Source: Prosthecobacter sp. (GTDB taxonomy: Bacteria > Verrucomicrobiota > Verrucomicrobiia > Verrucomicrobiales > Verrucomicrobiaceae). From it: a DNA stretch of 64,000 nucleotides. The stretch is from the NCBI RefSeq assembly GCF_044227185.1, contig NZ_JBGAFO010000017.1:13117-77116 (forward strand), written 5' to 3'. A program made the position numbers and the translations under genes. This document shows, piece by piece, positions 10,077 through 63,478 of the stretch (positions are counted from its first letter, which is position 1; each line of letters begins with the position of its first letter). The notes below the pieces were generated by a model, which saw only the letters and a list, made by a program, of their open reading frames with translations, was not told the DNA's origin and did no database searches.

Positions 10077-10086
10077 CAAACGAAGC

Positions 10087-11136: not shown

Positions 11137-11173
11137 GCGGACCACATCACACCTTGACGCTTCCCCGCCGTCA

Positions 11174-12439: not shown

Positions 12440-12440
12440 C

Positions 12441-12677
12441 TTACGACAGATCCGAGGCCAGCACCGAATTGGCCGCCCGCAGCGCCAGCTCCTTGGCCTG
12501 CGCGATCACGCGCACGGAGGTGGCGTCAAACAGGTAGGCATGGCAGCTCGGGCAGGTGATGGCACGGGTGACCACGATGGACCCACAGCCTTCGCAGACT
12601 TTGTACTGTTCAGGGTGGGTGGCGATCTTCTCGGCCTGCTTCAGACGTGAGTCTGGTTTGTGCTCATGCGCGCTCAT
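12441..12677 (-). CDS. Small zinc-ribbon protein (hypothetical)
   Basis: 78 aa with a CEGC...CPSC pair. GC3-rich codons. Co-directional with the upstream oxidoreductase gene. Confidence 0.5.
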   Translation of the reverse strand: MSAHEHKPDSRLKQAEKIATHPEQYKVCEGCGSIVVTRAITCPSCHAYLFDATSVRVIAQAKELALRAANSVLASDLS

Positions 12678-12779
12678 TAAGGAACTCTACGATGCTACGA
12701 CGACATTGGACGAGTGCAACGTCGGTAATGAACAACTTGAACTGTATTTTGTGCTTGCTTTGCGGGGGTTAAGCACCCC

Positions 12780-43900: not shown

Positions 43901-44682
43901 GGGATGGAAGCGAGGTGTTTGAGCAGAATTCGATATAGAAATGCATCGCGCTGCCAGTCAGGAGCACCCGGCAGATGCACAAGGGTCAGACGTTTGCCTC
44001 CAACATCTTGGTACGATACTTCGAGCATGCTGACCGGCTTCGCTTGCACCATCAGCAGGGAGGACTGCTCACCTAGAGACGGAAGCTGCGTCGAACTATC
44101 GGCAGTGACTTCACCCACGGCGAATGCCTGGGGATCAATGTGCAGCGGCATTTCAGCGCCAAGATCATCGAAAGGAATGCGCCAAGTCCGCAACTTCTCA
44201 CGCAGACCTGCTGCACGGCCAAACACATGCAGTTTGGGCAGATCTTTCAGCGCCGCCTGAACTGCCGCCAGGGATGTCCACTGCAGGTGAAACGTCGCTA
44301 CCCGCGATCTGCGCTTCCCATTCTCGGTGAAGTTGATCACAACGATTTGAGATACCGGCTTGGAGGTGTCTGGAGCAGGGATCGTGAAGCTTCCTTCCAA
44401 TACAGCAGGATGCGTGGGCGCTGGCTCTCGGGCAAAACGCAAATCTTTTGCCATCGGCGCTCCAATGCTTCCACCGTCCAAATAAACGTCCGCGCTTAAT
44501 TCGCCCTCAAGCTCTTTGTTTTGCAAAAAAGACAGTCTCACCGTCGCATCGGCGCCGAGAATTCGCTCAACGACTTCGGAAACCCCATGCTCGAGGTCAC
44601 CATCCAACGCCAGCATCCGCAACGGCTCAGCAGCAGGCAGGCAGGCGGTAAGGAAGACAGCGGTTAACAACCAGAATTTCAT
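43897..44682 (-). CDS. Hypothetical secreted protein (first gene of the CsgG-like operon)
   Basis: 261 aa, signal peptide MKFWLLTAVFLTACLPAA, translationally coupled (ATGA) to the next gene. Confidence 0.65.
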   Translation of the reverse strand: MKFWLLTAVFLTACLPAAEPLRMLALDGDLEHGVSEVVERILGADATVRLSFLQNKELEGELSADVYLDGGSIGAPMAKDLRFAREPAPTHPAVLEGSFTIPAPDTSKPVSQIVVINFTENGKRRSRVATFHLQWTSLAAVQAALKDLPKLHVFGRAAGLREKLRTWRIPFDDLGAEMPLHIDPQAFAVGEVTADSSTQLPSLGEQSSLLMVQAKPVSMLEVSYQDVGGKRLTLVHLPGAPDWQRDAFLYRILLKHLASIP

Positions 44683-44721
44683 GAACGATGACGTGAGTAA
44701 ATTTAATAGCAGGCTTACGGG

Positions 44722-44738
44722 TTAGGCTGCAAGCCTAA
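44722..44738. promoter_or_regulatory. Perfect palindrome upstream of the CsgG-like operon (possible operator)
   Basis: ttaggct-gca-agcctaa has 7-bp arms and lies 40-56 nt upstream of the ATG at 44682. A third half-site, aggctta, sits at 44711..44717. Confidence 0.3.
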
Positions 44739-44785
44739 TATCTCTCTGGAGCTGGATAACATTCAAAAAGAGCTGCTTTCTATGA

Positions 44786-44860
44786 AACCGGCCATGCTCC
44801 GCCATCGAAGGAATTACTTGAGGCCTCTCGAATGCGAAAGCGTTTTTGCTTTGCCGTTAA
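44786..44860 (+). pseudogene. Decayed 3' fragment of a DUF1553/PSD1-family gene
   Basis: It translates as NRPCSAIEGIT*GLSNAKAFLLCR*. The intact end of gene 37215..39434 reads DRRLALEDIAWSLVNAKEFLLCR*. The two have the same length and frame, with TGA replacing TGG. The 18 nt gtttttgctttgccgtta are identical (44842..44859 versus 39416..39433). Confidence 0.7.
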
Positions 44861-44888
44861 ATGCGCCCCGCTTTAACTCTCGGGGTTC

Positions 44889-45265
44889 ATGACAGAGGAG
44901 CGCAAAGCCCGGATCTACGAAGGCGTCCGGCGCATGGTCATTTGGGACGAATCCCGTGACGATGTTTTCATCGGCTGGAAGTCAATGGCATCCCCCAGGA
45001 GGCGGCACAGCAGATGTACGCCAAAGCCCGTGCCGAACGAATGGCGATGATCAGGTCCGATTCGATCAAGAAGGCGGCTCTCGGGTTTGGCCTCCTGTTG
45101 CTCACAGGCGTCGGCGGAGCATTTCTATATATGGGCGGCATCGTTCGCTCACTCCTTGTTTTAAACGCCGCCGCCTCCGTCTATGGCCTGTGGTTCTTCT
45201 CCAAAGGTCTGTTCTACTTCTTCTTTGCCCACACGAAGAATGGCTCTTTGGCCAACGACGACTGA
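44889..45265 (+). pseudogene. Small two-TM membrane protein gene interrupted by a 1-nt frame discontinuity
   Basis: Frame A (ATG 44889) reads MTEERKARIYEGVRRMVIWDESRDDVF. Frame B continues HRLEVNGIPQEAAQQMYAKARAERMAM...two TM helices...stop at 45265. The frames meet at gatgttttcatcgg (~44961..44974). The intact 3' ORF alone is 45014..45265. Confidence 0.5.
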
Positions 45266-45310
45266 CCCTTTGCCATCCTCCGCTGAAACGCCATCACCTG
45301 CAGGTCGTCA

Positions 45311-51803: not shown

Positions 51804-52670
51804 ATGCGCATCTTGCTTTTTCTTTTTGCTTTCGCCACCGTTTTGCGGGCCCAGACAGGGGAGCTCGAATCGTTCATCGAGGTGCGGTCCGGCACGCTGC
51901 CCGTCATTCTCACCGTGCCTCATGGCGGCATGCTGAAGCCGGCCAATGTGCTGGCGCGTCGCTACGGAGTCACGGGCACCGATTCCAACACCATCCCGCT
52001 GGCCGAGATGATCAGCGAGGAGCTCGCGGCGCGCTATGGCGGCAAGCCTCACGCCATCATCTCCCGCCTGCACCGGTCCAAGCTGGACCCCAATCGTGAT
52101 CTCGAAGAAGCGGCGCAGGGAGACCCCACCGCCGTGGCGGCCTGGCACCGCTTTCACGACAGCGCGCAAAAGGCCTGTGACACCGTGATGAAAAAGAGCG
52201 GCATGGGCCTGCTGCTGGACATTCACGGCCACCGCCATCTGGATCAGCGCGTGGAGCTGGGCTATCTGGTGAAGGCCGACCTCCTGAAGCAGTCGGATGC
52301 TGAACTGAACGCGGACACGGCGCTGATCGCCTCCACCTGCATTCGTGACCTGGACAAACGCTCGCCCGTGAGCTTCGCGGAACTGCTGCGCGGCCCGCAG
52401 AGCCTGGGCGGGCTGCTGGAGTACCGCGGGTTTCGCTGTCTGCCCAGTCCCTCGAAAGCGAACCCCGCCTTCCTGGCCGGCTACTTCAGCGGCGTGTATG
52501 ATGTGACCGCCCACGGTTCACGCAGCGGCGGCACTGTGAGCGCCATCCAGGTGGAGTGTCCCTGGAACAATGTGCGTGACACTCCCGAAAACCAGCGGCG
52601 CTTTGCCGTGGCGCTGGCGGAGTCACTCGGCGTTTACTTTGAGGTCCACTTTGGCCGGAAGCTGAAGTGA
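51804..52670 (+). CDS. N-formylglutamate amidohydrolase (FGase) family protein, secreted
   Basis: Signal peptide MRILLFLFAFATVLRA. PVILTVPHGG, SKLDPNRD and LLLDIHGH blocks are typical of the FGase family. Confidence 0.65.
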   Translation: MRILLFLFAFATVLRAQTGELESFIEVRSGTLPVILTVPHGGMLKPANVLARRYGVTGTDSNTIPLAEMISEELAARYGGKPHAIISRLHRSKLDPNRDLEEAAQGDPTAVAAWHRFHDSAQKACDTVMKKSGMGLLLDIHGHRHLDQRVELGYLVKADLLKQSDAELNADTALIASTCIRDLDKRSPVSFAELLRGPQSLGGLLEYRGFRCLPSPSKANPAFLAGYFSGVYDVTAHGSRSGGTVSAIQVECPWNNVRDTPENQRRFAVALAESLGVYFEVHFGRKLK

Positions 52671-54134
52671 GCGTTCCGTCCTGGGCTGCGGCTGCTCCGG
52701 CTCGGCCTTTTTGAGCTTGTTCCAGCAGGCGTCTGCCACTTCTTTTTGGGCGATGAAGACGCGGATCTCCGCCGGCGTGTTGGAGGCCCAGTCGATGGGA
52801 ATGCGCTCATCACGCAGGCCACGGCGATGCAGCCAGCCAAAAAAGGCGATGCTGCCCAACAGCGCGATGTTGAACGGCAGGCAGAGCGGCAGCAGCGCCA
52901 GCCGCAGCAGCGCCTCTGAGAGCGGCTCCCAAAGCAGCGCCAGGGCCAGCGTGACGAAAAGCATCCACAGAACCGTACGCACATTCAGCCGCAGGTAATG
53001 CCCGCCGAGAGCCAGCGCCAGGATGACGACATTCATCGCAAAGGCGGGATCCCCAAAGACCGGCTTCCACAAAGAGCCTGCGAAACAGGCCAGCAGCGCG
53101 GCCAGGGCCACCAGCGCGCTGGTGCGTGAATGCCAGAGAATGCCGATGAAGAACCACAGCCAGCAGAGCAGCACGCGTGTGGAGGTAAACTGCGCCGCCA
53201 GACTGAGATGCCCGGCCAGAAAGGTGCTGCACGCCTGGGCACGCTGTTTGGCCTCGCCTCCGGTGAGGGTGGCGGCAAATCCGGCGTAGGCGTCTGCAAA
53301 CAGCGGCGCGCACAGCGCCGCCGTGGTGAAGTGACGGCGCGCCTCATCGGGGCGGCCCGCCTGCAGGGCGCACCAGCCCAGGCCATCCCAGGAGTCGGCA
53401 AAAAAGGAATCCAGCGCCACGGCCCGGCGAAACGCCAGCTCCGCATCGTCATAGCGGCCCTGGCGGTAGCGGCTCCAGCCCAGGCCGTCATAGGCATCCG
53501 CCACGCCGATCTTGAGCGAGAGCACGCGGGAGAAAGCCGTCTGCGCCCCAGTTTGATCTCCGCGCCGGTACAAACTCCAGCCGAGACCCGCGCAGCGGTA
53601 GGCCTCCGCCATGTCGGTGCTGACCTCGGTGTTGAGGAAATGTTTCTCGGCCTTTTCAAAACGGTTCGTCAGCAGCGCGCGCCAGCCGCGCGTGAGCTCC
53701 GCATCATGCACGCCGAAGAAAATGAGCGCCGTCAGCGCCGCCCATGCGATGGCGACATAGGGCAGGCTGAAGAGGACGTAGGGCGACTTCGCCTCATGCA
53801 TCCGCTCGGCGACCGGCACGAAGAAAAAAGCCATGGCCCCGCAGCCGAGCGCGGTGGTCAGCGCCTGCGCCCACAGCGGCACCTGGGGAAAAAGATACCA
53901 CAGGGCGCCCAGCAGCGCGCCGTTCACACTGAAGAGGCCCGTCTTGAGCACCGTGTCATCCTGCGCACGCCATTGCGCGAAGAGGGAAATCAGCAGCGCC
54001 CCGGCCAGGCTCATCAGCGCGGCCTCGACTGACAGCACGAACAAGCCCAGGAGCACGCACACACCGGTGTCACGGTTGTTCGCCACGAGCATCTGCCCGT
54101 AACCACGCAGAGTGTGGTCCAGCAGGCGTTTCAT
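52623..54134 (-). CDS. Urea-transporter-fold membrane protein with a TPR insertion between the two half-domains
   Basis: The N-half has LRGYGQMLVANNRDTGVCVLLG...GLFSVNGALLGALWYLF (UT signature). The middle ~150 aa are TPR-like (AEAYRCAGLGWSLYRRGD, ADAYDGLGWSRYRQGRYDDAELAFRRAV, ADSWDGLGWCALQAGRPDEA). The C-half has AMNVVILALALGG. Confidence 0.65.
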   Translation of the reverse strand: MKRLLDHTLRGYGQMLVANNRDTGVCVLLGLFVLSVEAALMSLAGALLISLFAQWRAQDDTVLKTGLFSVNGALLGALWYLFPQVPLWAQALTTALGCGAMAFFFVPVAERMHEAKSPYVLFSLPYVAIAWAALTALIFFGVHDAELTRGWRALLTNRFEKAEKHFLNTEVSTDMAEAYRCAGLGWSLYRRGDQTGAQTAFSRVLSLKIGVADAYDGLGWSRYRQGRYDDAELAFRRAVALDSFFADSWDGLGWCALQAGRPDEARRHFTTAALCAPLFADAYAGFAATLTGGEAKQRAQACSTFLAGHLSLAAQFTSTRVLLCWLWFFIGILWHSRTSALVALAALLACFAGSLWKPVFGDPAFAMNVVILALALGGHYLRLNVRTVLWMLFVTLALALLWEPLSEALLRLALLPLCLPFNIALLGSIAFFGWLHRRGLRDERIPIDWASNTPAEIRVFIAQKEVADACWNKLKKAEPEQPQPRTERSLQLPAKVDLKVNAE

Positions 54135-55456
54135 GCAGCGGGGGGCAGTTCGGAAATCACAAGCGGCACTTTATGCGATCCTGGAGGTGCGGCAATCGTG
54201 GAGACGAAGGTGATTTGCAAATCCGCGGCATGGTCCAGCGCGGTTTCCAGCGCGCCCCGCACCCCTTTTTCCACGTCGTGGCGCGCGGCACCCGTTTCCG
54301 CCACCACGCGGACCTCCAGCATGCCCGGCTGCTTTTGCACCACCTGATACTGCGCCAGGCCGGGGACTTCCTCGATCGCATTGGTGATGACATACGGCGA
54401 GACCAAGCCGCCCCCGCGCGTGCGCAGCATGGCCGCGCTGCGGCCTTCGATCTGCCGGATGCTGCGCGCACTGCTGCCACAGGGGCAGGGCTCCGTCTCC
54501 CAGCGCGCCAGGTCCCCGAGTCCGCGATAGCGCAGGATCGGCGTGGCGGTGTTGGTCAGATCCGTGATGACCATGTGGCCCAGACCCTCGGTGGGCCGGC
54601 CCTCGTCATCGACGATCTCACACAGGACATTGGCCTCCGCGACATGCCAGCGCGAGTCCTGCACGCATTGCCAGGCCACCAGCCCGCCCTCGGTGCTGGT
54701 GTAAGTCTCGATGAGCCGTGCATTCGGAAAGATCTGCGCCAGCAAACGCCGCGTATGGGCGTCCAGCATCTCGGAGGTGAGGTGAATCAGCCGCGTTTTT
54801 TTCATCTCGCGGCCCTTCGCACGCAGCTCCAGCGCGATGGCACGCAGCGTTGATGGATAGGACGAAATGAACTCCGGCGCGGCGTTCAAAAGCTCGCGCG
54901 TGAGTTTGTCCACAGGCTCGTGCACGGAAAAAATGCGCGAATCCGGCACCGTGGTGCGCAGCAGATCTGCGGCGGCGAAGTCAATGCTGTCCCGCGCCAT
55001 GTCCACGAAGTAAAGCCCGTGGCTCAGCGGCTGGCCGTGGCACCAGTCATGGTACAAAGCTGTGTTGCAGGCCATGTAGTGCCACAGCGACTCCTCCGTG
55101 CGCGCCATGCTGGCGGGAATGCCGGTGGAGCCGGAGGACGCCAGCCAGCGAATGTCACCGCGGGGGTCTTTGGCGGTCAGATCCTCCCGCGCGGCGCTGC
55201 GCAGGTCGGCCTTGGCAAGAAAGGGAATTTTGGAGAGATCATCCCAGTCATCCAGCATCGCGGGTATGAAGCCGGCCTGCGCGAACAGGCGCTGGTAGAG
55301 CGGAACGTGCGCATGGGCATGCTGCACGAGCGAGCGAAGCATGCGCCACTGGTGAGCGCGGCGTTTGGGGGTGCTCCAGCCGCGTTGTTCGATCACCTGG
55401 TCCAGCGCGGCGTGGAGGCGCCGTCCCTGGCTGCGGATCTGGGAAGGCGTGTGCAT
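54131..55456 (-). CDS. Phenylacetate-CoA ligase / CapK / F390-synthetase family adenylate-forming enzyme
   Basis: The start at MHTPSQIRSQ gives 441 aa. LASSGSTGIPASM (P-loop-like), YTSTEGG and RYRGLGDLARWETEPCPCG blocks. The 193 upstream codons of the track ORF fall in a non-coding repeat array. Confidence 0.8.
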   Translation of the reverse strand: MHTPSQIRSQGRRLHAALDQVIEQRGWSTPKRRAHQWRMLRSLVQHAHAHVPLYQRLFAQAGFIPAMLDDWDDLSKIPFLAKADLRSAAREDLTAKDPRGDIRWLASSGSTGIPASMARTEESLWHYMACNTALYHDWCHGQPLSHGLYFVDMARDSIDFAAADLLRTTVPDSRIFSVHEPVDKLTRELLNAAPEFISSYPSTLRAIALELRAKGREMKKTRLIHLTSEMLDAHTRRLLAQIFPNARLIETYTSTEGGLVAWQCVQDSRWHVAEANVLCEIVDDEGRPTEGLGHMVITDLTNTATPILRYRGLGDLARWETEPCPCGSSARSIRQIEGRSAAMLRTRGGGLVSPYVITNAIEEVPGLAQYQVVQKQPGMLEVRVVAETGAARHDVEKGVRGALETALDHAADLQITFVSTIAAPPGSHKVPLVISELPPAA

Positions 55457-55482
55457 GGGGTTGCTTCTCTCTATCAGGCGGT

Positions 55483-56030
55483 GTTTGAGAACCAGTTTTG
55501 GCATGACACGCAAAACGGTCTTTGGGATGCGGGACGATGGGCGCTTGCGGAGTGCTGCGGGCTCGGAGGCCCGCGCTCCGGGGGCTGCGTTTGGTTTGAG
55601 AACCAGTTTGGCATGACACGCAACGGTCCTTTGTAAATGCGGGATGGTGGGTGATTGCGGGGTGCTGCGGGCTCGGAGGCCCGCGCTCCGGGGCTGCGTT
55701 TGGTTTGAGAGCCTGTTTGGCATGACACGCAACGGTCCTTTGTAAATGCGGGATGGTGGGTGATTGCGGGGTGCTGCGGGCTCGGAGGCCCGCGCTCCGG
55801 GGCTGCGTTTGGTTTGAGAACCAGTTTGGCATGACACGCAACGGTCTTTGTAAATGCGGGATGGTGGGCGCTTGCGGAGTGCTGCGGGCTCGGAGGCCCG
55901 CGCTCCAGCCCCGGAGCGGGGCTGCGTTTGGTTTGAGAGCCTGTTCGGCATTAGACGCAACGGTCCTTTGTAAATGCGGGACGGTGGGCGCTTGCGGAGT
56001 GCTGCGGGCTCGGAGGCCCGCGCTCCGGGG
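55483..56030. repeat. Five-copy tandem repeat array, unit ~109-119 bp, intergenic within the operon
   Basis: Units start with gtttgaga at 55483, 55594, 55703, 55812 and 55931. Each contains ggcatgacacgcaacgg, tttgtaaatgcggg and the hairpin gcgggc-tcggag-gcccgc. Copy 4 has an 11-nt insertion that creates cgctcc-agcccc-ggagcg. Confidence 0.9.
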
Positions 56031-56038
56031 GTCATGCA

Positions 56039-56701
56039 TCAAGGGCGGCCTGGGGGTGGGCCGGGGGGCTGGCCGGGAGGGCCGGAGCGGGTGAGGGCAA
56101 ATCCGTCCTGCACCATGTAGCCGTCCGGATTGATCTGCATGAGCTTCTCAAACAAAGGAGCAGCCATCCGGCCCTGCCCCTGGTTGATCAGTGACCAGCC
56201 AAACCAGCTCATGCCAATGGGGTCTTCAGGCTGGAGCTTGTAGGCGCGCTCAAAGTACACCTCGGCCTTCCGATAGTCCTGCTGGTTGAAAAGAATCTCT
56301 CCGGCGACGAGCAGCGTCGAGCGATGGAACTGGTCGATTTTCAAAACCTCACGCGCTGCGCGAAGGACGTCATCGGGTTTGTTCAGTGCCTGAAACACAT
56401 TCATCATGCCGAGGTGCGGTGTGATGGCGCGCGGCTCCTGCCTGGCGGCGGTGGTGTAGTACTGGACGGCCTTGGTGTAGTCTTTGTTGAGGTAGGAAAG
56501 CCACCCGGCGCGCACGGCCGCCAGATAGGTTTCACCGCCGGCGCTTTTGAAGGTCAGCACGCTTTGCAGCGCACCGGCGTAGTCGCCGTTGGCTTCAGCG
56601 CTGAGGGACTCCTGCCACGCCGCGGAGATGGCAGGCAGCTTGTCGGCGGCGTTCGCAGCGCTGGCAAAGGCCAGGGCAAGAATGAGGATGTGTGTTTTCA
56701 T
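56039..56701 (-). CDS. Periplasmic TPR-repeat protein
   Basis: The internal start MKTHILILALAFASAANA is a signal peptide, followed by TPR-like repeats (DYAGALQSV, DYTKAVQYYTTAARQEP, DYRKAEVYFERAYKLQPEDP). Pro/Gly-rich tail. Confidence 0.75.
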   Translation of the reverse strand: MKTHILILALAFASAANAADKLPAISAAWQESLSAEANGDYAGALQSVLTFKSAGGETYLAAVRAGWLSYLNKDYTKAVQYYTTAARQEPRAITPHLGMMNVFQALNKPDDVLRAAREVLKIDQFHRSTLLVAGEILFNQQDYRKAEVYFERAYKLQPEDPIGMSWFGWSLINQGQGRMAAPLFEKLMQINPDGYMVQDGFALTRSGPPGQPPGPPPGRP

Positions 56702-56723
56702 GGTTGAGAGGAGAGGCGTGTTT

Positions 56724-59003
56724 TTATTCGGCGTCACCATTGGGCAGGGTGGGTGTGAAGCTGGTTTGGGTGAAGATGCTGTCGTGGCTTTTGAAGTGTG
56801 CCGTGAGCTGGGAGAGACCGCGGACGGGCTCCAGGATGAACTCGATTTCCGCCGGCAGGCCAGCTCCGGCACCGGCGAGCGCGGTGGTGAGATGCAGCCT
56901 CTGCGGCGTGGGATGCAGCGAGTGGCGGCTGACGACGCGCTGGGCGGGGAAGCCCGCATAGGGCGCAAGAACGCCCGCCAATGCCCGACCGTGCAGCTTT
57001 GACTGCAAAGCGACACTATCCTCCCAGATCATGCCGCTCTGGTAAGCAAATGGCACGGTGGGCATGGCGAACGAAAGGAAGCGCAGGAGCTGCGAGCGGC
57101 CGCTGAGGCTGCTGTGCGTGATCTGCAGCGCGTGCAGGCCGAGAACCGCCGTGAGCGATTCTTTGCCGCTGCTGAAACGGTAGCAGCCGGACTCATCGAG
57201 GGTGATGGCGACCGTCTCAAACGAGGTCACTCCCGCGCTGCAGACACGGTAGGTGGCCACCCCGGGGGCAAAATGAGCCAGCGTGCCCAGCACGGTGGTG
57301 GAGACCGTCGCCGGGGCGATGCGGGCTCCAACTTTGGGCACACTGGCAAAGTTCCACCGCACACCTTCGCTGGTGCGCGTGAAGTAGTTCGCAAGGCAGA
57401 AAGGCGTGGTCGGCGCACCGGTCTCGGTGCTGGTCTGATTGTGCAGGTGAATGTGCGGCACCGGGCTGCGGCCGGAATTTCCGCAGTAGCCCAGCAGATC
57501 GCCGGCACTGACACGCTGGCCGGTTTTCACCAGGATGCCGTTCTTCATGAAGTGGGCCAGCTTCACAATGCCGCCGTAGTCCAGGCGCAGGATGAGGTGG
57601 TTGCCCCAGTTGTGGGCAAAGTTGCAGCCGCCAGGCGCATTGTCGGCCACGCCATCGGTCACGCGGACGATCTCCCCCGTGCCGGGAGCACGCACCTCAA
57701 GCCCCTGCGTGTAGTAGCGGCTCAAATCGTCGTCGCAGCCGGGCGGGCAGGCGTTGTCCGCCGCGTCATGTACTTCGAAATCGAGCGCGTGCCTCCACTC
57801 GCCGCGGTGGCTGAGCTTGTCGTCAAAACCCTGCGTCACCGTGACCTCGCGAGCGGTGGGCAGCAGCACGTGCGTTTCGTTGCGGTGGGGAAAGCGCGCA
57901 TTCGCCAGCGCCAGTGAAGCCGCCGCGGCCTCAGGATTTTCAAACACGCCCGTGGAGGGCAGCAGCGAGCCGGGCTTCTCACGCAGCCGCAGGCAGCAAA
58001 GCAGGCTCCAGATCGTCAGCAGGTAAGGCAGCGGCAGATATTCCCAGCCGGAGCCGCGCAGGAAATGCTGCACCGCGGCCACATGCAATGCGGCGACGGC
58101 ACCCGCGATGAACGCGAGCGCGAGGCTGCTCCAGGATGGCACGAAATACACCGCGCCCAGAGCCATGCCGGCGAGGAGGTAGTTGTGCCCGGCAAACCAG
58201 CCGAGCCACTGCAGCCCGCAGGCTTCCAGCAGTTTCACGATGAGAATGCCGCCTGCGTAACCGGCGAGGGCGTTGATCATGGCGACGCGTGACCACACGA
58301 GGATGGCGAGCGTGACCGCGAGGCCGGCCCACACGTTTGGCAGGAAGAGGATGGTGCCCATGCTGCGCAGGAAGGCGGTGACGACGAAGGGCAGCGCTGG
58401 CTCCTCTGGCAGTCCCATGTCCAGCAAGGCGGTGTTTGCAGCCCAGTGGGGGAAGAAGGTGAGGAGTGTGCCGAAGGTGACGACGAAGGCGACGCTCAGC
58501 GGCGGCAAGCCCGCGCGCAGGGGAAACCAATGCCACAGCGCCGCGGAGAGAAGCAGGGTGTAAACAGTGACGACGACGAGCATGCCCCAGATGGCCGGTG
58601 CGGCGAGGTCAGAGCCGCGGGTGATCCATGCGACGGCGAGCGCGCTGAGAAAAACATTGTAGAGCAGCGTGCCGTCTTTGCACATGGCCGCGGGCAGATG
58701 CAGAAGCTTCGCGAGGAAGCCGCCGAGCAGGCAGGCGCTGATGGCGAAGGCGAAATACTGCGGCATGAAGAGCAGCGTGGCGCAGAGCAGCACGCCGGTT
58801 TTCCAACTGCCGCAGAGGAAGATGGAGCTGGCGGCACGCGCGACTTCAAGCAGGGGCGCTGCGAGGGTTTCGAGATGGGGCCGCAATGTTTTGGCGAGGG
58901 CCGAGGCCGTGGCGACAGCCCGCTCCTTGGCGGAGGGAGGGCAGAGGGCGGCGTCTTCGAGAATGACCATCGCAGGGAGGGTGGATGGGGATTCGGGGTT
59001 CAT
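56724..59003 (-). CDS. Urea-transporter-fold membrane domain fused to a C-terminal M23 (LytM-type) metallopeptidase domain
   Basis: 759 aa with ~10 TM helices and two UT-like half motifs (GTLLYNVFLSALAVA; GHNYLLAGMALGAVYF). Then WRHALDFEV and GYCGNSGRSPVPHIHLHNQ, the M23 G-x-S-G...H-x-H block. Confidence 0.7.
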   Translation of the reverse strand: MNPESPSTLPAMVILEDAALCPPSAKERAVATASALAKTLRPHLETLAAPLLEVARAASSIFLCGSWKTGVLLCATLLFMPQYFAFAISACLLGGFLAKLLHLPAAMCKDGTLLYNVFLSALAVAWITRGSDLAAPAIWGMLVVVTVYTLLLSAALWHWFPLRAGLPPLSVAFVVTFGTLLTFFPHWAANTALLDMGLPEEPALPFVVTAFLRSMGTILFLPNVWAGLAVTLAILVWSRVAMINALAGYAGGILIVKLLEACGLQWLGWFAGHNYLLAGMALGAVYFVPSWSSLALAFIAGAVAALHVAAVQHFLRGSGWEYLPLPYLLTIWSLLCCLRLREKPGSLLPSTGVFENPEAAAASLALANARFPHRNETHVLLPTAREVTVTQGFDDKLSHRGEWRHALDFEVHDAADNACPPGCDDDLSRYYTQGLEVRAPGTGEIVRVTDGVADNAPGGCNFAHNWGNHLILRLDYGGIVKLAHFMKNGILVKTGQRVSAGDLLGYCGNSGRSPVPHIHLHNQTSTETGAPTTPFCLANYFTRTSEGVRWNFASVPKVGARIAPATVSTTVLGTLAHFAPGVATYRVCSAGVTSFETVAITLDESGCYRFSSGKESLTAVLGLHALQITHSSLSGRSQLLRFLSFAMPTVPFAYQSGMIWEDSVALQSKLHGRALAGVLAPYAGFPAQRVVSRHSLHPTPQRLHLTTALAGAGAGLPAEIEFILEPVRGLSQLTAHFKSHDSIFTQTSFTPTLPNGDAE

Positions 59004-59017
59004 GGTGGGTGGGAGGA

Positions 59018-59045
59018 GAATGACGAATGACGAATGACGAATGGG
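59018..59045. repeat. GAATGAC heptamer array (GTCATTC on the coding strand)
   Basis: gaatgac x3 plus gaatggg, located 15-42 nt upstream of the ATG at 59003 on the minus strand. Confidence 0.85.
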
Positions 59046-59282
59046 GAGGGAGGTGGCTGGGGCTGGCGAGGGTGCGTGGGTGGGAGAGGGTGGGGGGGCT
59101 GGCGAGAGCGGCGCTGAAGCGCCGCAGTCCGGGGACGCTGGCGCGAGGGACGGAGGGTTTGGGTGATGCGGGGCGAGGGAGGGGTGCGGAGGGGCTGGAT
59201 CGAGGACGAGTTCGAGTAGGAGGACGAGGACGAAAGGGGAGCCGGAAAGGGAGGAAGAGGAGGAGTAGGAGGAAGAGGAAGA

Positions 59283-60722
59283 TTAGGTGTGCGAGGGGGA
59301 TAGCAGATGAGGGGGGATGCGTTCGAGGCGCTGGACGTAGTCGAGGTCTTCGCGTTCGCGGATGATGTCCACGCGGCCGTCGAGGCCGATCATGAGGACG
59401 GCGGGACGGTAGGTGATGAACTGCATGCTCTGGGTGATGTTGTAGGCGCCCACGGGATGCATGACGAGATGATCTCCGGTGGTCATGGCGGGGAGGGAGA
59501 CCTGCTCGCGAATGACGTCGATGTTCATGCAGAGGCAGCCGTAGAGCTTGATGGGCTGCTGCGCGCTTTCACGCTGGGCCCTGGCGGGCTTCACGTTGAA
59601 GCGGTACCAGTTGCCGCTGTAGAGGAGGTTGATGCCGGCATCGATGACATAGGCGGCGCCCGTGGCTTCCGGCATGTAGGCGGGCGCTTTCGCGGCCTTG
59701 CCCGCGAGCGTGATCGGGCCGGAGGTGCTCGACTGCTTCACCGCGACAATGCTCGTGATCAAATAACCCGCTTCATCCACCAGAGCGCGGCCGCTTTCCA
59801 GGTAGAGGCGCGGGCGGCGATCGCGTGGCAGTGTGTTCAGCACACCGGCGATGGCCTCGGCGTATTTCTCGATGGGCGGCACGACCTGCTCGGCAGGCTG
59901 GTAGGAGTAATGCAGCGTGCTGAGCGAGGGAAATCCGCCGCCGAGGTTCAGATAGCGCAAGGACCAGCCGTGGCTCTCACGGCAGCGCTCCATGAGCGTG
60001 ACAAGCTTTTCCGCCGCCACCTTGTAGGCGTTCGGCTCCAGGATGTAGGTGCCGATGTGGGTGTGGAGTCCTTGCAAGCGAAGGCGGCCTTTGCTCTCGG
60101 CGATGCGGCGGATGGCGCGCCAGGCCTCGCCGTTTTCCACGCCAAAGCCAAACTTGCTCCACACCGGCTGAATGCCCGCATCAAGCCAGCAGCGGATGGC
60201 GATGTCGATGCTGCGGTTCTGTTCTTTGGCAATCGTGTCGAGCAGCAGCAGCTCATCCCAGTTGTCCACCTGGATCATCGAGCCTTCGCTGATGGCCAGC
60301 TCCAGGCCCGCGCGGGTCTTATGCGGGCCGTTGAAGATGATGTCGCGACCCGCGATGCCGTTGCGGCGCGCTTTTTCATACTCAAACTCGCTCACCACTT
60401 CGGCGATGGAGCCTTCGCTGTGAAAGACGCGGCAGATGGCGTTGAGGTAGTTCGTCTTGTAGCTCCAGGCGAAGCGTGTGTTTGGATAGCGGCTTTCGAA
60501 GGCTTCGCGGGCGCGCTGGATTTTTTCCCGCAGGGTGCGCTCGGAGAAAACGAAGAGCGGGGAGCCGAAGCGCGCTGCGAGGTCCGCCACGGGCACGCCA
60601 TCGATGCGTTCACAGACGTTGCTGTTGAGGCCGTGGGCATGGCGGTTGCGGTTGGCGGCGCTGTTCTGGCCGCTGAGATGACGGGTGATCGTCGGGGGGG
60701 AGTAGGTTTGGAGAGGGTGCAT
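59283..60722 (-). CDS. Type III (alanine-racemase-fold) PLP-dependent decarboxylase, DAP/Orn/Arg decarboxylase family
   Basis: FAWSYKTNY (PLP lysine), LNLGGGFP, YLESGRALV and GCLCMNIDV blocks. 479 aa. Confidence 0.88.
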   Translation of the reverse strand: MHPLQTYSPPTITRHLSGQNSAANRNRHAHGLNSNVCERIDGVPVADLAARFGSPLFVFSERTLREKIQRAREAFESRYPNTRFAWSYKTNYLNAICRVFHSEGSIAEVVSEFEYEKARRNGIAGRDIIFNGPHKTRAGLELAISEGSMIQVDNWDELLLLDTIAKEQNRSIDIAIRCWLDAGIQPVWSKFGFGVENGEAWRAIRRIAESKGRLRLQGLHTHIGTYILEPNAYKVAAEKLVTLMERCRESHGWSLRYLNLGGGFPSLSTLHYSYQPAEQVVPPIEKYAEAIAGVLNTLPRDRRPRLYLESGRALVDEAGYLITSIVAVKQSSTSGPITLAGKAAKAPAYMPEATGAAYVIDAGINLLYSGNWYRFNVKPARAQRESAQQPIKLYGCLCMNIDVIREQVSLPAMTTGDHLVMHPVGAYNITQSMQFITYRPAVLMIGLDGRVDIIREREDLDYVQRLERIPPHLLSPSHT

Positions 60723-60752
60723 GGGAGGATGCAGGGGGGAATGAGGAAACCA

Positions 60753-60780
60753 GAATGAGGAATGACGAATGACGAATGAC
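60753..60780. repeat. GAATGAC heptamer array, second site
   Basis: gaatgag then gaatgac x3, located 5 nt after the ATP-grasp stop and 31-58 nt upstream of the decarboxylase ATG at 60722. A further gaatgag lies at 60739. Confidence 0.85.
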
Positions 60781-60785
60781 TTAGC

Positions 60786-61889
60786 TCACAGGCCGCGGGA
60801 CGAGGCCGGGTGGGGGATGATCTCGCGGGGCTGGCGGAAGAACTGGCCGCTGGTGGTGAGGGCGGCGAGGTCGCGGATGTCTCCGGTCATGTCGATGGCA
60901 TGGCGGATGAAGAACTTGCCGGGGATGGCGTGGCGCAGCGGCTCGCGCGGCTGCCAGCCGAGGGCCAGCTCCAGCGCGGCGGCGGGCAGGTTGCAGTTCA
61001 GGGTGGAGGGGAAGTCACACCAGGCCGGGAAGCGCGGGTTGATCTCGATGAGGCAGTACTCGCCTCCGGGGCCTTCGGCTTTGACGAACTCGAGTTCAAA
61101 CGGGCCGTTCCAGCGCAGCTCGGCGATGAGGGACTGCGCGATGGCATCGAGCTGCGGATCACGCACGACCATGCCGCCAAAACCTTTGCCCATGGAGGTG
61201 CGGAGCATCTTGCGAATGGAGCAGGAGCCGAGCATGCGGCCGCGGCCGTCTCCCAGACCAATGACGTTGTATTCCTCCCCCTGCACATTTTCCTGCACGA
61301 GCACCGGAGCGCCCCACTGCTCCAGCATGTGCCAGTAGGCGGCCTCGCGGGCGGCGGGGGTGATGGCATGCCTGGCCTCATAGAAGCGCCCTTTCACAAA
61401 CACATTACCGCCGAGCGTCATCGCCGCCTGGTGCAGCGAATTCACGTCGTTCACGGCAATGGTCTGCGGTGTGCGGCAGTGCGTGCGCTCGCACAGCTCC
61501 GCCAGCCTGGATTTGTCGCGGCATTTGAAGCTCGCGGCGCTGGGCAGGCAGGCGTGGATGCCGCGCTCGCGCAGTTTTTCAGGAGCCTCCACCAGCGGGC
61601 CCATTTCGGCATCGAGGCAGGGAATCAACACATCAAAGCGTTCGATCTCGCGGATGGCGTCCAGCCGCTGCCAGAAGGCCTCTTCACCGGCTCCTGGATA
61701 GGACATGGTGAAGGCGGCGTCCGGGGCGTCTTCTTCGCTGAAGAGGCCGCTTTCGAGCGAATCGTAAACGAGACCGACGATGCGCAGCTCGGGGTAAACG
61801 CGGCGCAGGCTGCGGATGACGGCGGAGCCGGGCTGGGGATTTTCACCGCGGTGAAGCCCGGTGACGGCGATGACAGGGGAGGCATTCAT
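60786..61889 (-). CDS. ATP-grasp domain ligase
   Basis: 367 aa. VFVKGRFYEA, QENVQGEEYNV and YCLIEINPRFPAW (E-x-N Mg/ATP site) give an ATP-grasp topology. Confidence 0.85.
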   Translation of the reverse strand: MNASPVIAVTGLHRGENPQPGSAVIRSLRRVYPELRIVGLVYDSLESGLFSEEDAPDAAFTMSYPGAGEEAFWQRLDAIREIERFDVLIPCLDAEMGPLVEAPEKLRERGIHACLPSAASFKCRDKSRLAELCERTHCRTPQTIAVNDVNSLHQAAMTLGGNVFVKGRFYEARHAITPAAREAAYWHMLEQWGAPVLVQENVQGEEYNVIGLGDGRGRMLGSCSIRKMLRTSMGKGFGGMVVRDPQLDAIAQSLIAELRWNGPFELEFVKAEGPGGEYCLIEINPRFPAWCDFPSTLNCNLPAAALELALGWQPREPLRHAIPGKFFIRHAIDMTGDIRDLAALTTSGQFFRQPREIIPHPASSRGL

Positions 61890-61922
61890 GGGAGGATGAA
61901 GCGGGGTTGGGATGGACAGAAA

Positions 61923-62279
61923 TCAGTTCGGCTCCTTGATGAGGCCGATGTGGACGAGCTCGGCGAGGAAGAGCTCGAGGTCCCGCTCCGCGGTGCTGCG
62001 GGCGACTTCGAAGCGCGCGGTGATGCGGTCCAGGATCTGGGCGCGCGCCATCCCCCCGCTCAAGGACTGCATGACCAGGAGCGCGGTGGGGCTGGCGGTG
62101 AAAAACTCGCCGCTGGTGGCGTCAAAACCAAACCCGTCCGCCTGCCAGGTGACGGTGTGAAAGTCAAAGCTGGCCGCTTCGGTGTTCGGAGCTGCGGCAG
62201 GAGCGGCAACGCCGGGAGCCGCCAGATGGGGCGGCTGGCTCAGGGGAGCGGCCAGGGTGGAAAGAGGCGCGAGTTTCAT
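61923..62279 (-). CDS. PqqD-like (RRE-type) small protein with Ala/Pro-rich N-terminal extension
   Basis: The C-terminal ~75 aa (..SGEFFTASPTALLVMQSL..ARAQILDRITARFEV..STAERDLELFLAELVHIGLI) fit the PqqD pattern. The start at MKLAP (62279) is preferred over 62300 because of its CCACCACC-ATG context. Confidence 0.65.
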   Translation of the reverse strand: MKLAPLSTLAAPLSQPPHLAAPGVAAPAAAPNTEAASFDFHTVTWQADGFGFDATSGEFFTASPTALLVMQSLSGGMARAQILDRITARFEVARSTAERDLELFLAELVHIGLIKEPN

Positions 62280-62356
62280 GGTGGTGGATGATTGAATCAC
62301 ACCACATAGAAACCCGGCAGGTTAACACCACTGCGGGGGCAAAGATGAATTTGCGT

Positions 62357-62761
62357 TTATTTTTCGTCTCCGATGCGCAGGGTTTTGGGCTGGGCGGGGC
62401 TGTCAGGGACGGGGCGCGACACATCCAGCGCAGGGAGACCATGCTTCACCAGCATGAGGTTTGCGCGGTGGTGCTGGTCATGCCACACGCTGTCCGGATC
62501 GGTCTGGCCGTTCCATGAGGTGCGCAGCACCGGCATCTGCGTAAACTCGACCGAGTTTGAATCCAGCCGGATGGGGGGTGCTTCACGCCGGGGTTTCGCG
62601 GCGTCCGGCTGCTGCTGCGCGTTTTTCTCCACGACGAGGGCGCTCTCAGCGTTTTTCTGCGCACGGTAGCAGCGCAAACCAGCCCACCAGGTGGTGGCGG
62701 GCACCAGCAGGGCGGCGATCAACATCACCCCCCGGAATAATTGTGAGGATGTCGTCTTCAT
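62357..62761 (-). CDS. Hypothetical membrane-anchored protein
   Basis: 134 aa with one N-terminal TM helix (GVMLIAALLVPATTWWAGL). No family recognised. Confidence 0.55.
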   Translation of the reverse strand: MKTTSSQLFRGVMLIAALLVPATTWWAGLRCYRAQKNAESALVVEKNAQQQPDAAKPRREAPPIRLDSNSVEFTQMPVLRTSWNGQTDPDSVWHDQHHRANLMLVKHGLPALDVSRPVPDSPAQPKTLRIGDEK

Positions 62762-62827
62762 GGAGAAAAGGAATTCCTTTTTTCGCCCCCTGCAAGCCCT
62801 GCTTTTGGGCGCAGAACTGCCCCTGGC

Positions 62828-63094
62828 TCAGCGGGCCCCGCCTGCTGATTTTTGCACAGCCAGGATGAGCATCGCCAGGCTGCGGCCTTCGACTTGAAGG
62901 TCGATTTTTTCACCGGCCGTACGACGCAGGACCGCCCTGCCGAGGGGCGCATCCTCGGAGATGCGGCCACTGTCAGCATCGGCCTCATGTCCAGGCACCA
63001 CCTGGATGGTGATGTCGAACTCGTGCAATGTGGCGAGTTCATTGAGAGGACGCAGGGTGACGTGGTCATAGTGATGTACGGAAAGAGTGCTCAT
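62828..63094 (-). CDS. GreA/GreB C-terminal-domain-only protein (Rnk-like)
   Basis: 88 aa from the internal start MSTLSV. ITIQVVPGHEADADSGRISEDAPLGRAVLRRTAGEKIDLQV matches the GreA/B C-terminal pattern (..P.EAD...g.IS..SPlG.AllG...Gd.v). Confidence 0.65.
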   Translation of the reverse strand: MSTLSVHHYDHVTLRPLNELATLHEFDITIQVVPGHEADADSGRISEDAPLGRAVLRRTAGEKIDLQVEGRSLAMLILAVQKSAGGAR

Positions 63095-63154
63095 GGAGGA
63101 AAAAATGGAGAAAGGGATGGAGGTGAAATGCCTGTGACGAAGGCAGGCGGAAGC

Positions 63155-63199
63155 GGCTCCTGCCGGGGATGGCAGGAGCCTTCCGCATGATGAATGCGG
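63155..63199 (-). terminator. Paired GC-rich hairpins between the 84-aa gene and the GreA-like gene (terminator or attenuator candidate; no U tract)
   Basis: A perfect 10-bp stem ggctcctgcc-ggggat-ggcaggagcc (63155..63180) and a 6-bp stem ccgcat-gatga-atgcgg (63183..63199). Confidence 0.35.
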
Positions 63200-63223
63200 C
63201 GTCACAGAGGGGGCATCAGGGCG

Positions 63224-63478
63224 TCACTGCCGGACGGCGTGGAGGGACTCGATGCAGTCCTCAGGGTGCGTGCGGAGCACGTAGGAGCGCACGGACTCCC
63301 GTGCCGACTCCCCGGTCCGCGCCGCCACTTCGTAAGTGGCTTCGGTGAAAACCTTTCCGAAGATTTCGTGGCGTTTGAAAACACAGGTGACCAGCCACGT
63401 GGGCCGCTCAAAGGCCAGCGCGCTGCCAACGCGCACGGGTTTGTCATCCTGGTTAAAAATTCGTTCCAATAGTTTCAT
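63224..63478 (-). CDS. Small hypothetical protein (84 aa)
   Basis: Internal start MKLLERIFNQDD preceded by an AT/pyrimidine-rich leader. GC3-rich codons. No family recognised. Confidence 0.5.
   Translation of the reverse strand: MKLLERIFNQDDKPVRVGSALAFERPTWLVTCVFKRHEIFGKVFTEATYEVAARTGESARESVRSYVLRTHPEDCIESLHAVRQ

Follow-up and report, generated by a model that had tools for sequence, protein, structure and literature searches.

A Conserved Gene Cassette of Prosthecobacter sp. Combining an ATP-Grasp Ligase, a PLP Decarboxylase, and a Urea Transporter-Fold Protein Fused to an M23 Peptidase

Introduction

In the butirosin pathway of Bacillus circulans (BtrI, BtrJ, BtrK, and BtrG), an amino acid is attached via its side chain by an ATP-grasp ligase, the tethered residue is α-decarboxylated by a pyridoxal phosphate (PLP)-dependent enzyme, and a group is later removed by hydrolysis. 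A comparable logic is suggested by a locus of Prosthecobacter sp. (Verrucomicrobiota), situated on the minus strand at 52623–63478 of the 64,000-nucleotide stretch analyzed here (positions 13,117 to 77,116 of contig NZ_JBGAFO010000017.1, RefSeq assembly GCF_044227185.1), hereafter called the window. The locus consists of ten co-directional open reading frames (ORFs), G1 to G10. Four of them, G4 to G7, encode a PqqD-like protein, an ATP-grasp ligase, a PLP decarboxylase, and a urea transporter (UT)-fold membrane protein fused to an M23 peptidase domain; they form the core of the cassette described in this work.

Several other systems resemble parts of this locus. An ATP-grasp ligase together with an enzyme modifying the tethered residue is found in the carrier-tethered pathways (BtrI/BtrJ/BtrK and LysW/LysX). 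In rhizoferrin biosynthesis of Francisella (FigA/FigC, or FslA/FslC), a conjugate is ligated and then decarboxylated, the ligase being an NIS synthetase (a siderophore synthetase that is independent of nonribosomal peptide synthetases) and the export relying on a major facilitator superfamily (MFS) pump. In the pathways of pearlins (3-thiaglutamate) and microcin C, a peptide-binding module, such as the clamp of MccB resembling a recognition element (RRE) of ribosomally produced and post-translationally modified peptides (RiPPs), guides the addition and modification of a residue on a peptide, and a protease frees the small product. The peptidase-containing ATP-binding cassette transporters (PCATs), which export bacteriocins and RiPPs, have a processing peptidase fused to the membrane protein of the exit. 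The urea channels (dvUT, UT-B, and UT-A; SLC14) are built of two inverted five-helix repeats, and synthase-dependent exopolymer export (PgaA, BcsC, PelB, AlgK/AlgE) combines a periplasmic tetratricopeptide repeat (TPR) protein and an outer-membrane barrel with an inner-membrane machine that has no ATPase of its own.

A survey from 2026 includes UT + M23 among its domain architectures and, assigning no specific function to it, remarks only that combinations of this kind might be due to diverse functions or to regulation (PMC12998343). With this exception, our search of the literature on the domain combinations (UT, M23, PqqD, ATP-grasp, decarboxylase) revealed no matching system or cluster, and none of the curated NCBIfam system models describes the cassette. 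The statement of the preliminary description of this locus that the combination cannot be mapped to a characterized pathway thus holds. In the reading that we prefer, albeit tentatively, the cassette would encode a membrane-docked machine that ligates, decarboxylates, and cleaves, releasing a small amide or amine via a UT-like pore.

Results

The Four-Gene Core Is Conserved in Order across Distant Phyla

The survey of relatives was based on one genome per species and yielded at least 554 tblastn-confirmed UT/M23 relatives, 80 of which were analyzed at the locus level; 71 loci with sufficient upstream flanking DNA served as the denominator for synteny. The conserved core consists, in order, of the genes for the PqqD-like protein (G4), the ATP-grasp ligase (G5), the decarboxylase (G6), and the UT/M23 protein (G7). 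The ATP-grasp and decarboxylase genes immediately preceded the UT/M23 gene in 70 of the 71 loci, with the core order kept, and the PqqD-like gene was detected by phmmer upstream of the ATP-grasp gene in 62 of them, those of the remainder being too divergent for phmmer. The carriers span at least seven phyla, with core-bearing taxa among Verrucomicrobiota, Alpha-, Beta-, and Gammaproteobacteria, Bacteroidota, Myxococcota, Ignavibacteria, Planctomycetes, and Acidobacteria (Terriglobia). Distant G7 homologs (30–36% identity) on unrelated contigs were preceded by the PqqD, ATP-grasp, and decarboxylase genes in the same order every time, and a search begun from the ATP-grasp protein arrived again at this cassette, in Stutzerimonas stutzeri, in Labrys monachus, and on a contig of a JGI metagenome. 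In the proteobacterial loci, the four core genes overlap stop-to-start. Since the G4–G5–G6–G7 order recurs in 70 of 71 loci and in at least seven phyla, the core is a real unit, far beyond what chance would give.

The culturable carriers include S. stutzeri, with the ATP-grasp accessions AKN25279.1 and AWK99922.1, Dechloromonas agitata DSM 13637, Ferrovibrio xuzhouensis, and L. monachus, and named Prosthecobacter carriers are P. vanneervenii and P. fluviatilis. The tblastn search of PLSDB revealed only isolated M23 domains; hence, the cassette is not plasmid-borne in that collection. G1–G3 were found solely in close Prosthecobacter relatives, with a patchy distribution even there, and are lineage-specific upstream genes outside the conserved system. 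The gene set put together in the preliminary description is thus conserved in other genomes as regards G4–G7 as well as G9 and G10 (see below), but only among close Prosthecobacter relatives as regards G1–G3.

Several loci deviated from the common organization. In L042, a metagenome-assembled genome of Methylacidiphilales, a single ORF (7287–9851, in the region 7287–9876) encodes the ATP-grasp protein and most of the decarboxylase, whose C-terminus lies in another frame; it is either a true ligase–decarboxylase fusion or the result of (long-read) frameshifts. Locus L065 (Bacteroidia, 9962–13221) carries UT/M23 and a barrel-like TPR protein, with no ATP-grasp or decarboxylase gene within 10 kb upstream. 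In L043 (2068–14374), the ATP-grasp gene is shifted 8 kb upstream, beside a second TPR gene, and a further ATP-grasp paralog lies downstream. Three records have unexpected titles: L010 is assigned to Akkermansia muciniphila yet holds a Prosthecobacter-type locus at 78% identity, and L063 (Bifidobacteriaceae) and L067 (Bifidobacterium) both carry Bacteroidota-type loci. These titles are likely binning or labeling errors.

G6 Belongs to a Clade of Decarboxylases Acting Largely on Tethered Residues

G6 matched the Pfam family Orn_Arg_deC_N (1e-30). Its closest solved structure is FigC/FslC (7kh2, 2e-50), with diaminopimelate (DAP) decarboxylase (DAPDC, 1.5e-35) and BtrK (8e-23) scoring lower. The FigC clade comprises SbnH, AcsE, BtrK, MccE (the decarboxylase of the microcin C pathway), DAPDC, and the decarboxylase of D-ornithine (D-ODC); its members, except for DAPDC and D-ODC, decarboxylate amino-acid moieties attached to larger groups (PMC7857480). 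The specificity residues named in that work were placed by HMMER alignment on 75 members of the G6 family. Each of the 74 sequences that align at the PLP lysine has this residue, and it is near-invariant together with a Cys–Met pair (73–74 of 75); in 73 of the 75 members, the catalytic Cys is followed by Met, a feature shared with FigC, whereas the residue is acidic in DAPDC and ODC. Arg343, which binds the distal carboxylate in the DAPDC of Methanocaldococcus jannaschii, is replaced by Thr or Ser, and Gln and Ile, respectively, stand where FigC has its citrate ligands Arg387 and His357.

Two specific assignments were considered and rejected. As a DAP decarboxylase, G6 missed the cut-off of the lysA model TIGR01048 (217 bits vs. 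297.9) and has neither the DAP-binding Arg nor the acidic residue. As an N-citrylornithine decarboxylase, it missed the cut-off of the FslC model NF041039 (196 vs. 500), its citrate ligands are replaced, and no NIS synthetase is encoded in any annotated cassette locus, the ligase being of the ATP-grasp type here. Judging from these residues, G6 should be catalytically competent, and its substrate, predicted to be neither meso-DAP nor a citryl conjugate, would most likely be an amino acid that already bears an acyl or other group on its side-chain function.

G5 Has Intact ATP-Grasp Motifs and G4 Lacks the Hallmarks of a Carrier

The Pfam matches of G5 were below the cut-off, and the PRK12767-like models of NCBIfam gave 1.7e-18. 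The profile of the G5 family run against PDB detected 2pn1 at 4e-19, with carbamoyl-phosphate synthetase (CPS) in the range of approximately 1e-18 to 1e-19. The AF2 model of G5 (pLDDT 85) was related by Foldseek to 2pn1 (unannotated), CPS, biotin carboxylases, and the L-amino-acid ligases RizA and BL00235. The ExNxR motif (E282, N284, and R286) and the ATP-binding lysines K126 and K166 are invariant in the family.

G4 matched PF05402 (7.8e-10) and the lasso PqqD model of NCBIfam (2e-10, under the cut-off of that model). The PqqD-like proteins of the cassettes are stand-alone winged-helix domains of approximately 80 residues, the tails of which vary. Neither a Ser, Cys, Lys, or Glu residue nor a terminus is conserved across this family, and no ACP- or LysW-like gene was detected. 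In contrast to BtrI, an acyl carrier protein, and LysW, the partner of the ligase has neither a phosphopantetheinyl Ser nor a C-terminal Glu of the EDWGE type. Because a conserved attachment residue or terminus is missing, the role of a LysW-, BtrI-, or ACP-type carrier is unlikely for G4, and RRE-like peptide binding is taken as its default role. The earlier analogy with carrier-tethered chemistry therefore stands only in part: the ligase–decarboxylase logic fits the clade and the active site of G6, but the small partner is unlikely to be the carrier.

The UT Domain of G7 Is Fused to a Highly Conserved M23 Domain and Has an Altered Filter

G7 matched the Pfam families UT (3.6e-31) and Peptidase_M23 (2.2e-9), and in its AF2 model (pLDDT 84) a helical linker joins the UT domain to the M23 domain, which is followed by a beta-rich domain at the C-terminus; the protein would probably form a trimer. 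Foldseek aligned the UT domain with dvUT (3me1, 3k3f) and UT-B at a TM-score of approximately 0.8, and the M23 domain with lysostaphin, LytM, and EnpA. Searches of Pfam, NCBIfam, or structures bore out the family calls that the preliminary description made for the operon genes, among them UT and PqqD, the former also at the level of the fold.

The zinc/catalytic residues of the M23 domain (H399, D408, H484, H517, and H519) are invariant in all 78 family sequences. The first motif is expanded to H-x8-D, and the inserted stretch contains an invariant Trp403. Positions conserved in at least 90% of the family amount to 31 of 151 in M23, 10 of 287 in UT, and 5 of 224 in the C-terminal domain, M23 being the best-conserved part of G7. 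The C-terminal domain, confidently modeled by AF2, had no relative in the Pfam or PDB sequence searches. The exhaustive HMMER search with the M23 and C-terminal domains as a query returned 203 cluster representatives (50% identity) at E ≤ 1e-30, nearly all of them 700–770 aa long with the match placed behind an N-terminal region of approximately 340 residues. This match is nearly always located behind a UT domain; therefore, the fusion with UT is essentially obligatory.

The filter residues of dvUT (PMC4357013) were mapped on G7 through the alignment to 3k3f. The G7 family keeps L84, L247, F190, and both [F/Y]-N motifs, thus sharing the twin motifs and several hydrophobic filter residues with the urea channels. 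Of the Sm site, formed by L84, T130, L247, and T294, T130 is replaced by Ser, and T294 by Pro in 31 sequences, by Ser in 26, and by Ala in 13; the position of E187 is occupied by Ala, Thr, or Ser, and Q24 is lost (Ser by manual alignment). Smaller residues are present at several filter positions. Unlike in the urea channels, the UT fold is fused here to M23 and a further domain, or split by TPRs as in G10, and no urease, urea carboxylase, or amidase genes were found in the Pfam-annotated neighborhoods of the cassette loci. The pore of G7 looks maintained, yet without the canonical urea filter; the hydrophobic lining kept and the polar filter residues changed suggest that it may conduct something other than urea.

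The linker past the last UT helix of G7 is positively charged, and the central loop is acidic. In the G7 relatives P0063, P0260, P0316, and P0323, the protein is extended by an Arg-rich stretch, a hydrophobic helix, and a TPR region (three sequences inspected); P0260 has the domain run UT, M23, C-terminal domain, transmembrane (TM) helix, and TPR, the last being homologous to G8 (3e-13). In UT-B, the central loop is extracellular and glycosylated. Since the fusions insert a TM helix before TPR, and G10 carries its TPR block in the central loop, the TPR parts are predicted to lie outside, with M23 and the C-terminal domain on the opposite face. The M23 domain would thus face the cytoplasm, on the same side as G4, G5, and G6. 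A cytoplasmic M23 enzyme would be, to our knowledge, unprecedented; the domain shares the zinc/catalytic motifs of the LytM/lysostaphin endopeptidases but, with the predicted topology, would have no extracytoplasmic access to murein.

G9 and G10 Form a Module That Accompanies the Core

G9 matched the NCBIfam DVU_1553 family (7e-33) and the PaaK structure 4r1l (1e-20). Its assignment as a phenylacetate-CoA ligase was rejected, as it scored 84 bits with the PaaK model TIGR02155, far under the equivalog cut-off of 646, and has as a constant neighbor a UT:TPR protein and not the paa catabolic context. G10 matched UT (5.5e-23), with the two UT halves at residues 6–138 and approximately 310–440 and the TPRs at 170–300. 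Elsewhere, relatives with this UT:TPR:UT organization (30–43% identity) are nearly always encoded directly downstream of a PaaK/CapK-like gene. The gene order in L090 is PqqD, ATP-grasp, decarboxylase, PaaK, and UT:TPR, with no UT/M23 gene, and that in L107, L111, L116, and L121 is TPR, PqqD, ATP-grasp, decarboxylase, UT/M23, PaaK, O-methyltransferase, and UT:TPR, with approximately 33% identity to the window. The O-methyltransferase of the latter four loci belongs to PF00891 (2e-25), and its homolog lies upstream of PqqD in L001. G9 and G10 constitute a module of their own that belongs with the core, because the pair replaces UT/M23 in L090 and the whole set recurs in the other four loci.

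A variant organization was noticed in L097 (5643–6716) and L095, in which UT/M23 is accompanied by a pair of genes for G8-like TPR proteins and, on the opposite strand, by a gene for a polytopic membrane protein of 357 aa; next comes a G10-type gene, with no PaaK gene recognizable beside it.

The Outer Partners Vary between Lineages

G8 matched TPR_2 (2.6e-16) and, weakly, the models of PgaA, BcsC, and PrsT. Most loci that do not belong to the proteobacterial-type group carry a G8-like gene, either upstream or downstream of the core. The Bacteroidota loci encode an extra protein of approximately 400 aa that has a signal peptide, a TPR at its N-terminus, and aromatic residues at its C-terminal end (..SWKF, ..KFKP), with a G8-like TPR protein after it; to judge from sequence features, the C-terminal region of the extra protein resembles an outer-membrane barrel. 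The proteobacterial-type loci, which also include those of Terriglobia, carry an orphan SBP_bac_5 (SBP5) protein and a secreted enzyme of the dienelactone hydrolase (DLH) type, and seven of them a BcsS-family protein with a signal peptide and a terminal Phe. Since the positions and orientations of the SBP5, DLH, and BcsS genes vary, their functional linkage with the cassette may be argued. The outer partners thus differ between lineages, yet are always periplasmic or outer-membrane proteins (TPR, TPR with a barrel-like region, BcsS-like, SBP5, or DLH hydrolase).

The TPR and barrel-like partners, the BcsS-like proteins, and the weak matches of G8 recall polymer export and raise the idea, in our view very unlikely, of synthesis-coupled secretion of a side-chain-free polyamide. 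The ATP-grasp ligase and the decarboxylase would act iteratively, as BtrJ and BtrK act twice, yielding a poly-(omega-amino acid) chain that threads the amide-selective UT slot; M23 of the glycyl-glycine type would trim or release it, and TPR and the barrel would guide it out as in PgaA, BcsC, and PelB. The smaller residues in the filter would suit a chain, no exporter ATPase is encoded, and the M23 family includes endopeptidases cutting side-chain-free polyglycine, as reflected in the Foldseek matches. Nevertheless, the idea is conjecture throughout, a polymer of this kind is not known, and a UT pore wide enough for a polymer is an assumption. The barrel call comes from sequence features, the window has no gene for an outer-membrane partner, and, unlike in exopolymer export, no glycosyltransferase is present.

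The SBP5 proteins bear on two further explanations. In Dechloromonas, the SBP5 gene immediately precedes PqqD on the same strand, and the SBP5 protein of L084 (S. stutzeri, 7787–9346) was closest to 8vdx (1e-92), a PDB entry deposited as a 'bacterial extracellular solute-binding protein', for which no describing paper was found, and then to GsiB/YliB, with MppA being weaker (6.5e-12). As periplasmic SBP5 proteins usually serve uptake, the cassette might work inward: a small neutral compound, or a peptide fragment prepared by periplasmic SBP5, DLH, or TPR proteins, would enter by the UT channel and be captured at its inner mouth by ATP-dependent ligation, catalyzed by the ATP-grasp or PaaK-type enzyme, and subsequent decarboxylation, parallel to the vectorial trapping by GlpF/GlpK and FadL/FadD. 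UT channels are passive and bidirectional, and each UT-type protein is paired with a carboxylate-activating ligase (G5–G7 and G9–G10), which would suit such metabolic trapping. We consider it unlikely, as the SBP5 gene has no catabolic enzymes, ABC permease, or ATPase alongside, SBP5 and DLH are restricted to the proteobacterial-type loci, and the ligase, decarboxylase, O-methyltransferase, and RRE-like protein make up a biosynthetic rather than catabolic set.

The second explanation, the least probable of those considered here, is the editing or salvage of murein peptides. Stem peptides bound by an MppA-like SBP5 would be cleaved by M23, meso-DAP would be decarboxylated at its free D-center to Lys, and the product would be religated by the ATP-grasp enzyme. 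M23 and DAPDC-like enzymes both recognize murein components, MppA is among the SBP5 matches, and peptidoglycan genes lie near two loci (PBP1 in L087; YkuD and Lpp-like in L088). Against it speak the lack of the DAP-binding Arg and the acidic residue in G6, the predicted cytoplasmic location of M23, and the closer relatedness of SBP5 to 8vdx and GsiB/YliB than to MppA. YkuD and PBP1 gave one match each among the 83 loci searched; the idea of a peptidoglycan neighborhood was dropped, as the YkuD, PBP1, and PG-binding genes near the two loci are not recurrent.

Organization of the Locus in the Window

The coordinates of the genes and other features are listed in Table 1. The preliminary description of eleven consecutive minus-strand genes is right with respect to the co-directional run, but the run consists of ten ORFs, and ten proteins were itemized there as well. 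The short gaps or overlaps reported for it apply to most junctions (22–129 nt for the majority of gaps and a 4-nt overlap of G9 and G10), but not to the G6–G7 (279 nt) and G8–G9 (582 nt) spacers. The best protein matches are from Prosthecobacter, with 88% identity in the case of G7.

Table 1. Positions of the genes, G7 domains, and adjacent elements in the 64,000-nucleotide window.
Feature	Position	Strand	Description
G1	63224–63478	−	84 aa; no family match (Pfam, NCBIfam)
G2	62828–63094	−	88 aa; stand-alone GreA/GreB C-terminal domain (PF01272, 1.4e-9)
G3	62357–62761	−	134 aa; one N-terminal hydrophobic/TM segment; no family match (Pfam, NCBIfam)
G4	61923–62300	−	PqqD-like (RRE-type) small protein; opens the conserved core; alternative start ATG at 62279
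G5	60786–61889	−	ATP-grasp carboxylate-amine ligase; CPS/biotin carboxylase/L-amino-acid ligase clade
G6	59283–60722	−	Alanine racemase-fold PLP decarboxylase; FigC/SbnH/BtrK/MccE/DAPDC clade
G7	56724–59003	−	759 aa; UT fold, M23, and beta-rich C-terminal domain
G7 residues 54–340	57984–58844	−	UT-fold (SLC14-like) membrane domain, ten helices
G7 residues 385–535	57399–57851	−	M23 metallopeptidase domain; predicted on the cytoplasmic side
G7 residues 536–759	56727–57398	−	Beta-rich C-terminal domain; fold family not recognized
G8	56039–56701	−	Secreted (periplasmic) TPR partner; signal peptide
G9	54131–55456	−	PaaK/CapK-family adenylate-forming ligase; accessory tailoring enzyme
G10	52623–54134	−	Second UT-fold protein; TPR block in the central loop; no M23 domain
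FGase-like ORF	51804–52670	+	Convergent; 48-nt overlap with G10
Five 109-nt tandem repeats	55471–56026		Fill the G8–G9 spacer; read as an insertion

The five 109-nt repeat copies are 67–98% identical to the reference copy and give rise to long spurious ORFs on both strands. No further copies were found elsewhere in the window or in 83 related loci, and in the relatives G8 and G9 abut without a repeat-filled spacer. The G6–G7 spacer (59004–59282) is C/T-rich on the coding strand. Two close relatives, L007 and L020, lack it and have a 4-nt overlap of the two genes instead.

A heptamer repeated in tandem, reading (GAATGAC)n on the plus strand and (GUCAUUC)n in mRNA, occurs at only two sites of the window (59018–59043 and 60738–60780) vs. 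0.01 expected by chance, 15–58 nt upstream of the start codons of G7 and G6. It was also found in relatives (L101/L102 at 1824–1844, L100 at 2313–2333, L092 at 1141–1154, and L040 at 6103–6116); among the compared loci it was present only within this operon and close upstream of start codons, although the gene junction differs. The heptamer may be a translational or regulatory leader element. The Rfam search of the window and seven related loci revealed no riboswitch or leader, the sole match being two rsmX sRNA genes (RF02144, 85 and 74 bits) in L084 of S. stutzeri (1657–2003), approximately 8 kb upstream of the cassette and probably unrelated to it.

The convergent FGase-like ORF overlaps G10 by 48 nt, as noticed before, but its family match is weak (FGase 1.4e-5, below the cut-off, with no match in NCBIfam). 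Its position next to the operon is kept in the genus alone, and L014, L016, and L017 lack it. Its link to the system, put forward in the preliminary description, is doubtful.

Elsewhere in the window, the G+C content of positions 40001–46000 is 0.54–0.56 vs. 0.60–0.65 in the remainder, and this segment could be horizontally acquired. The PADLOC models gave a generic TPR match for G10 only and no defense-system match.

Discussion

In the membrane-docked machine that we propose, G4 would hold in the cytoplasm an extended peptide or amide chain, a scaffold or acceptor not encoded in the operon, and present it to G5. At the expense of ATP, G5 would attach an amino acid by a side-chain amide so that its α-amino and α-carboxyl groups stay free, and G6 would strip the α-carboxylate from the tethered residue, leaving a terminal amine. 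The M23 domain of G7, placed on the cytoplasmic face of its own UT channel, might then cut the small modified fragment loose at the pore mouth, from which it would diffuse through the UT-like slot to the periplasmic TPR, SBP, or barrel partners (G8 in the window). The second pair of a ligase and a channel, G9 and G10, might add or handle an acyl group, and the PaaK-type ligase and the methyltransferase, where present, would tailor the product.

The conserved gene order of the core, the invariant ATP-grasp motifs, the invariant M23 site, the essentially obligatory UT fusion, and the affiliation of G6 with the FigC-like clade of tethered-residue decarboxylases support this proposal, together with the loss of the residues binding free DAP or citrate, the predicted topology, the altered yet maintained pore, and the periplasmic or outer-membrane nature of the partners, as does the joining of tailoring genes typical of metabolite pathways (the PaaK/CapK ligase and the PF00891 O-methyltransferase) in several lineages. 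Several observations weigh against it. Neither an ATPase nor anything else that could power export is encoded, the canonical UT pore is wide enough for urea-sized solutes only, and a molecule of very small size would not need a dedicated set of TPR and outer-membrane-barrel proteins. SBP5 partners would be expected in import rather than export, M23 enzymes are otherwise extracytoplasmic cell-wall hydrolases, and the Foldseek neighbors of G5 are generic, revealing no substrate class. All functional steps are deduced from sequence. The analysis establishes the gene families, their order, the intact active sites, the UT fold, and the domain fusions, and from these the topology, the kind of substrate, the succession of reactions, the transport direction, and the product are predicted.

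The scaffold itself is a further point against the proposal. The all-against-all comparison of ORFs of 12–90 aa from 2.5 kb upstream to 3.5 kb downstream of the core at 80 loci detected no conserved precursor or scaffold ORF, and inspection of ribosome-binding site-preceded ORFs of 5–60 aa upstream of PqqD in eight proteobacterial loci gave nothing. The operons are tightly packed. All that the searches returned were shadow ORFs lying within real genes; a precursor that is encoded at a distance or is very short is possible.

This result would suit a pathway producing a free small molecule without any peptide scaffold, which we regard as rather unlikely. The ATP-grasp ligase would join the side chain of an amino acid to a small acid or amine, and the decarboxylase would convert the conjugate into an N-acyl diamine or omega-amino amide, following the logic of FigA/FigC or MfnA/MfnD; PaaK-type and methyltransferase enzymes would tailor the product, which would leave via the UT pores, and PqqD and M23 would be docking, regulatory, or trimming parts only. 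G6 is indeed closest to FigC, which works on a small conjugate, tailoring enzymes are present, and the narrow UT pore suits a small neutral product. However, the PqqD-type proteins, known peptide-binding modules, are retained in nearly all loci, the invariant M23 site implies real cleavage of a peptide or amide, and both the citrate ligands of FigC and the NIS synthetase are absent.

Compared with the described systems, the machine proposed here would combine features that occur separately. The hydrolase of the butirosin pathway would have its counterpart in M23 fused to a membrane channel, the partner of the ligase is a PqqD-like protein, and no aminoglycoside genes are present. RRE-dependent RiPP clusters share the PqqD-like RRE with the cassette, in which the precursor gene adjoining the enzymes was not found; with respect to pearlins and microcin C, the addition would depend on ATP-grasp here and depends on tRNA or adenylate there. 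The layout of an invariant-site M23 fused to a channel is analogous to that of PCATs and may stand for a leader peptidase and exporter of the RiPP type, but the proteins are non-homologous: the peptidase is M23 and not C39, it is C-terminal, and the membrane part is a passive UT fold without an ATPase. The cassette departs from every known family in at least one of the defining features tested, be it the carrier or the precursor, the ligands of citrate or DAP, the filter for urea, or the place where M23 is located. A broader statement, in which the UT fold is not a urea channel but the port of the ligase/decarboxylase/peptidase machine and the M23-cut product, made at the cytoplasmic mouth as either a small fragment built on a recyclable peptide scaffold or an iteratively grown side-chain-free polyamide, passes an amide-selective slot to the periplasmic TPR and outer-membrane partners, is also held to be rather improbable.

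Conclusions

The cassette is widespread and, in our assessment, varies a known biosynthetic logic by adding a membrane component that has no precedent. Public annotation names its proteins "urea transporter", "carbamoyl-phosphate synthase large subunit", or "diaminopimelate decarboxylase", and according to the active-site residues and the gene context, at least the first and the last of these names are wrong. The cassette occurs in culturable and genetically tractable hosts. If the proposed machine proves true, it would represent a new class of metabolite pathway or natural product, an SLC14/UT fold with a function other than urea conduction, the first M23 peptidase working inside the cell, and synthesis coupled to release across the envelope without an ATP-driven pump.

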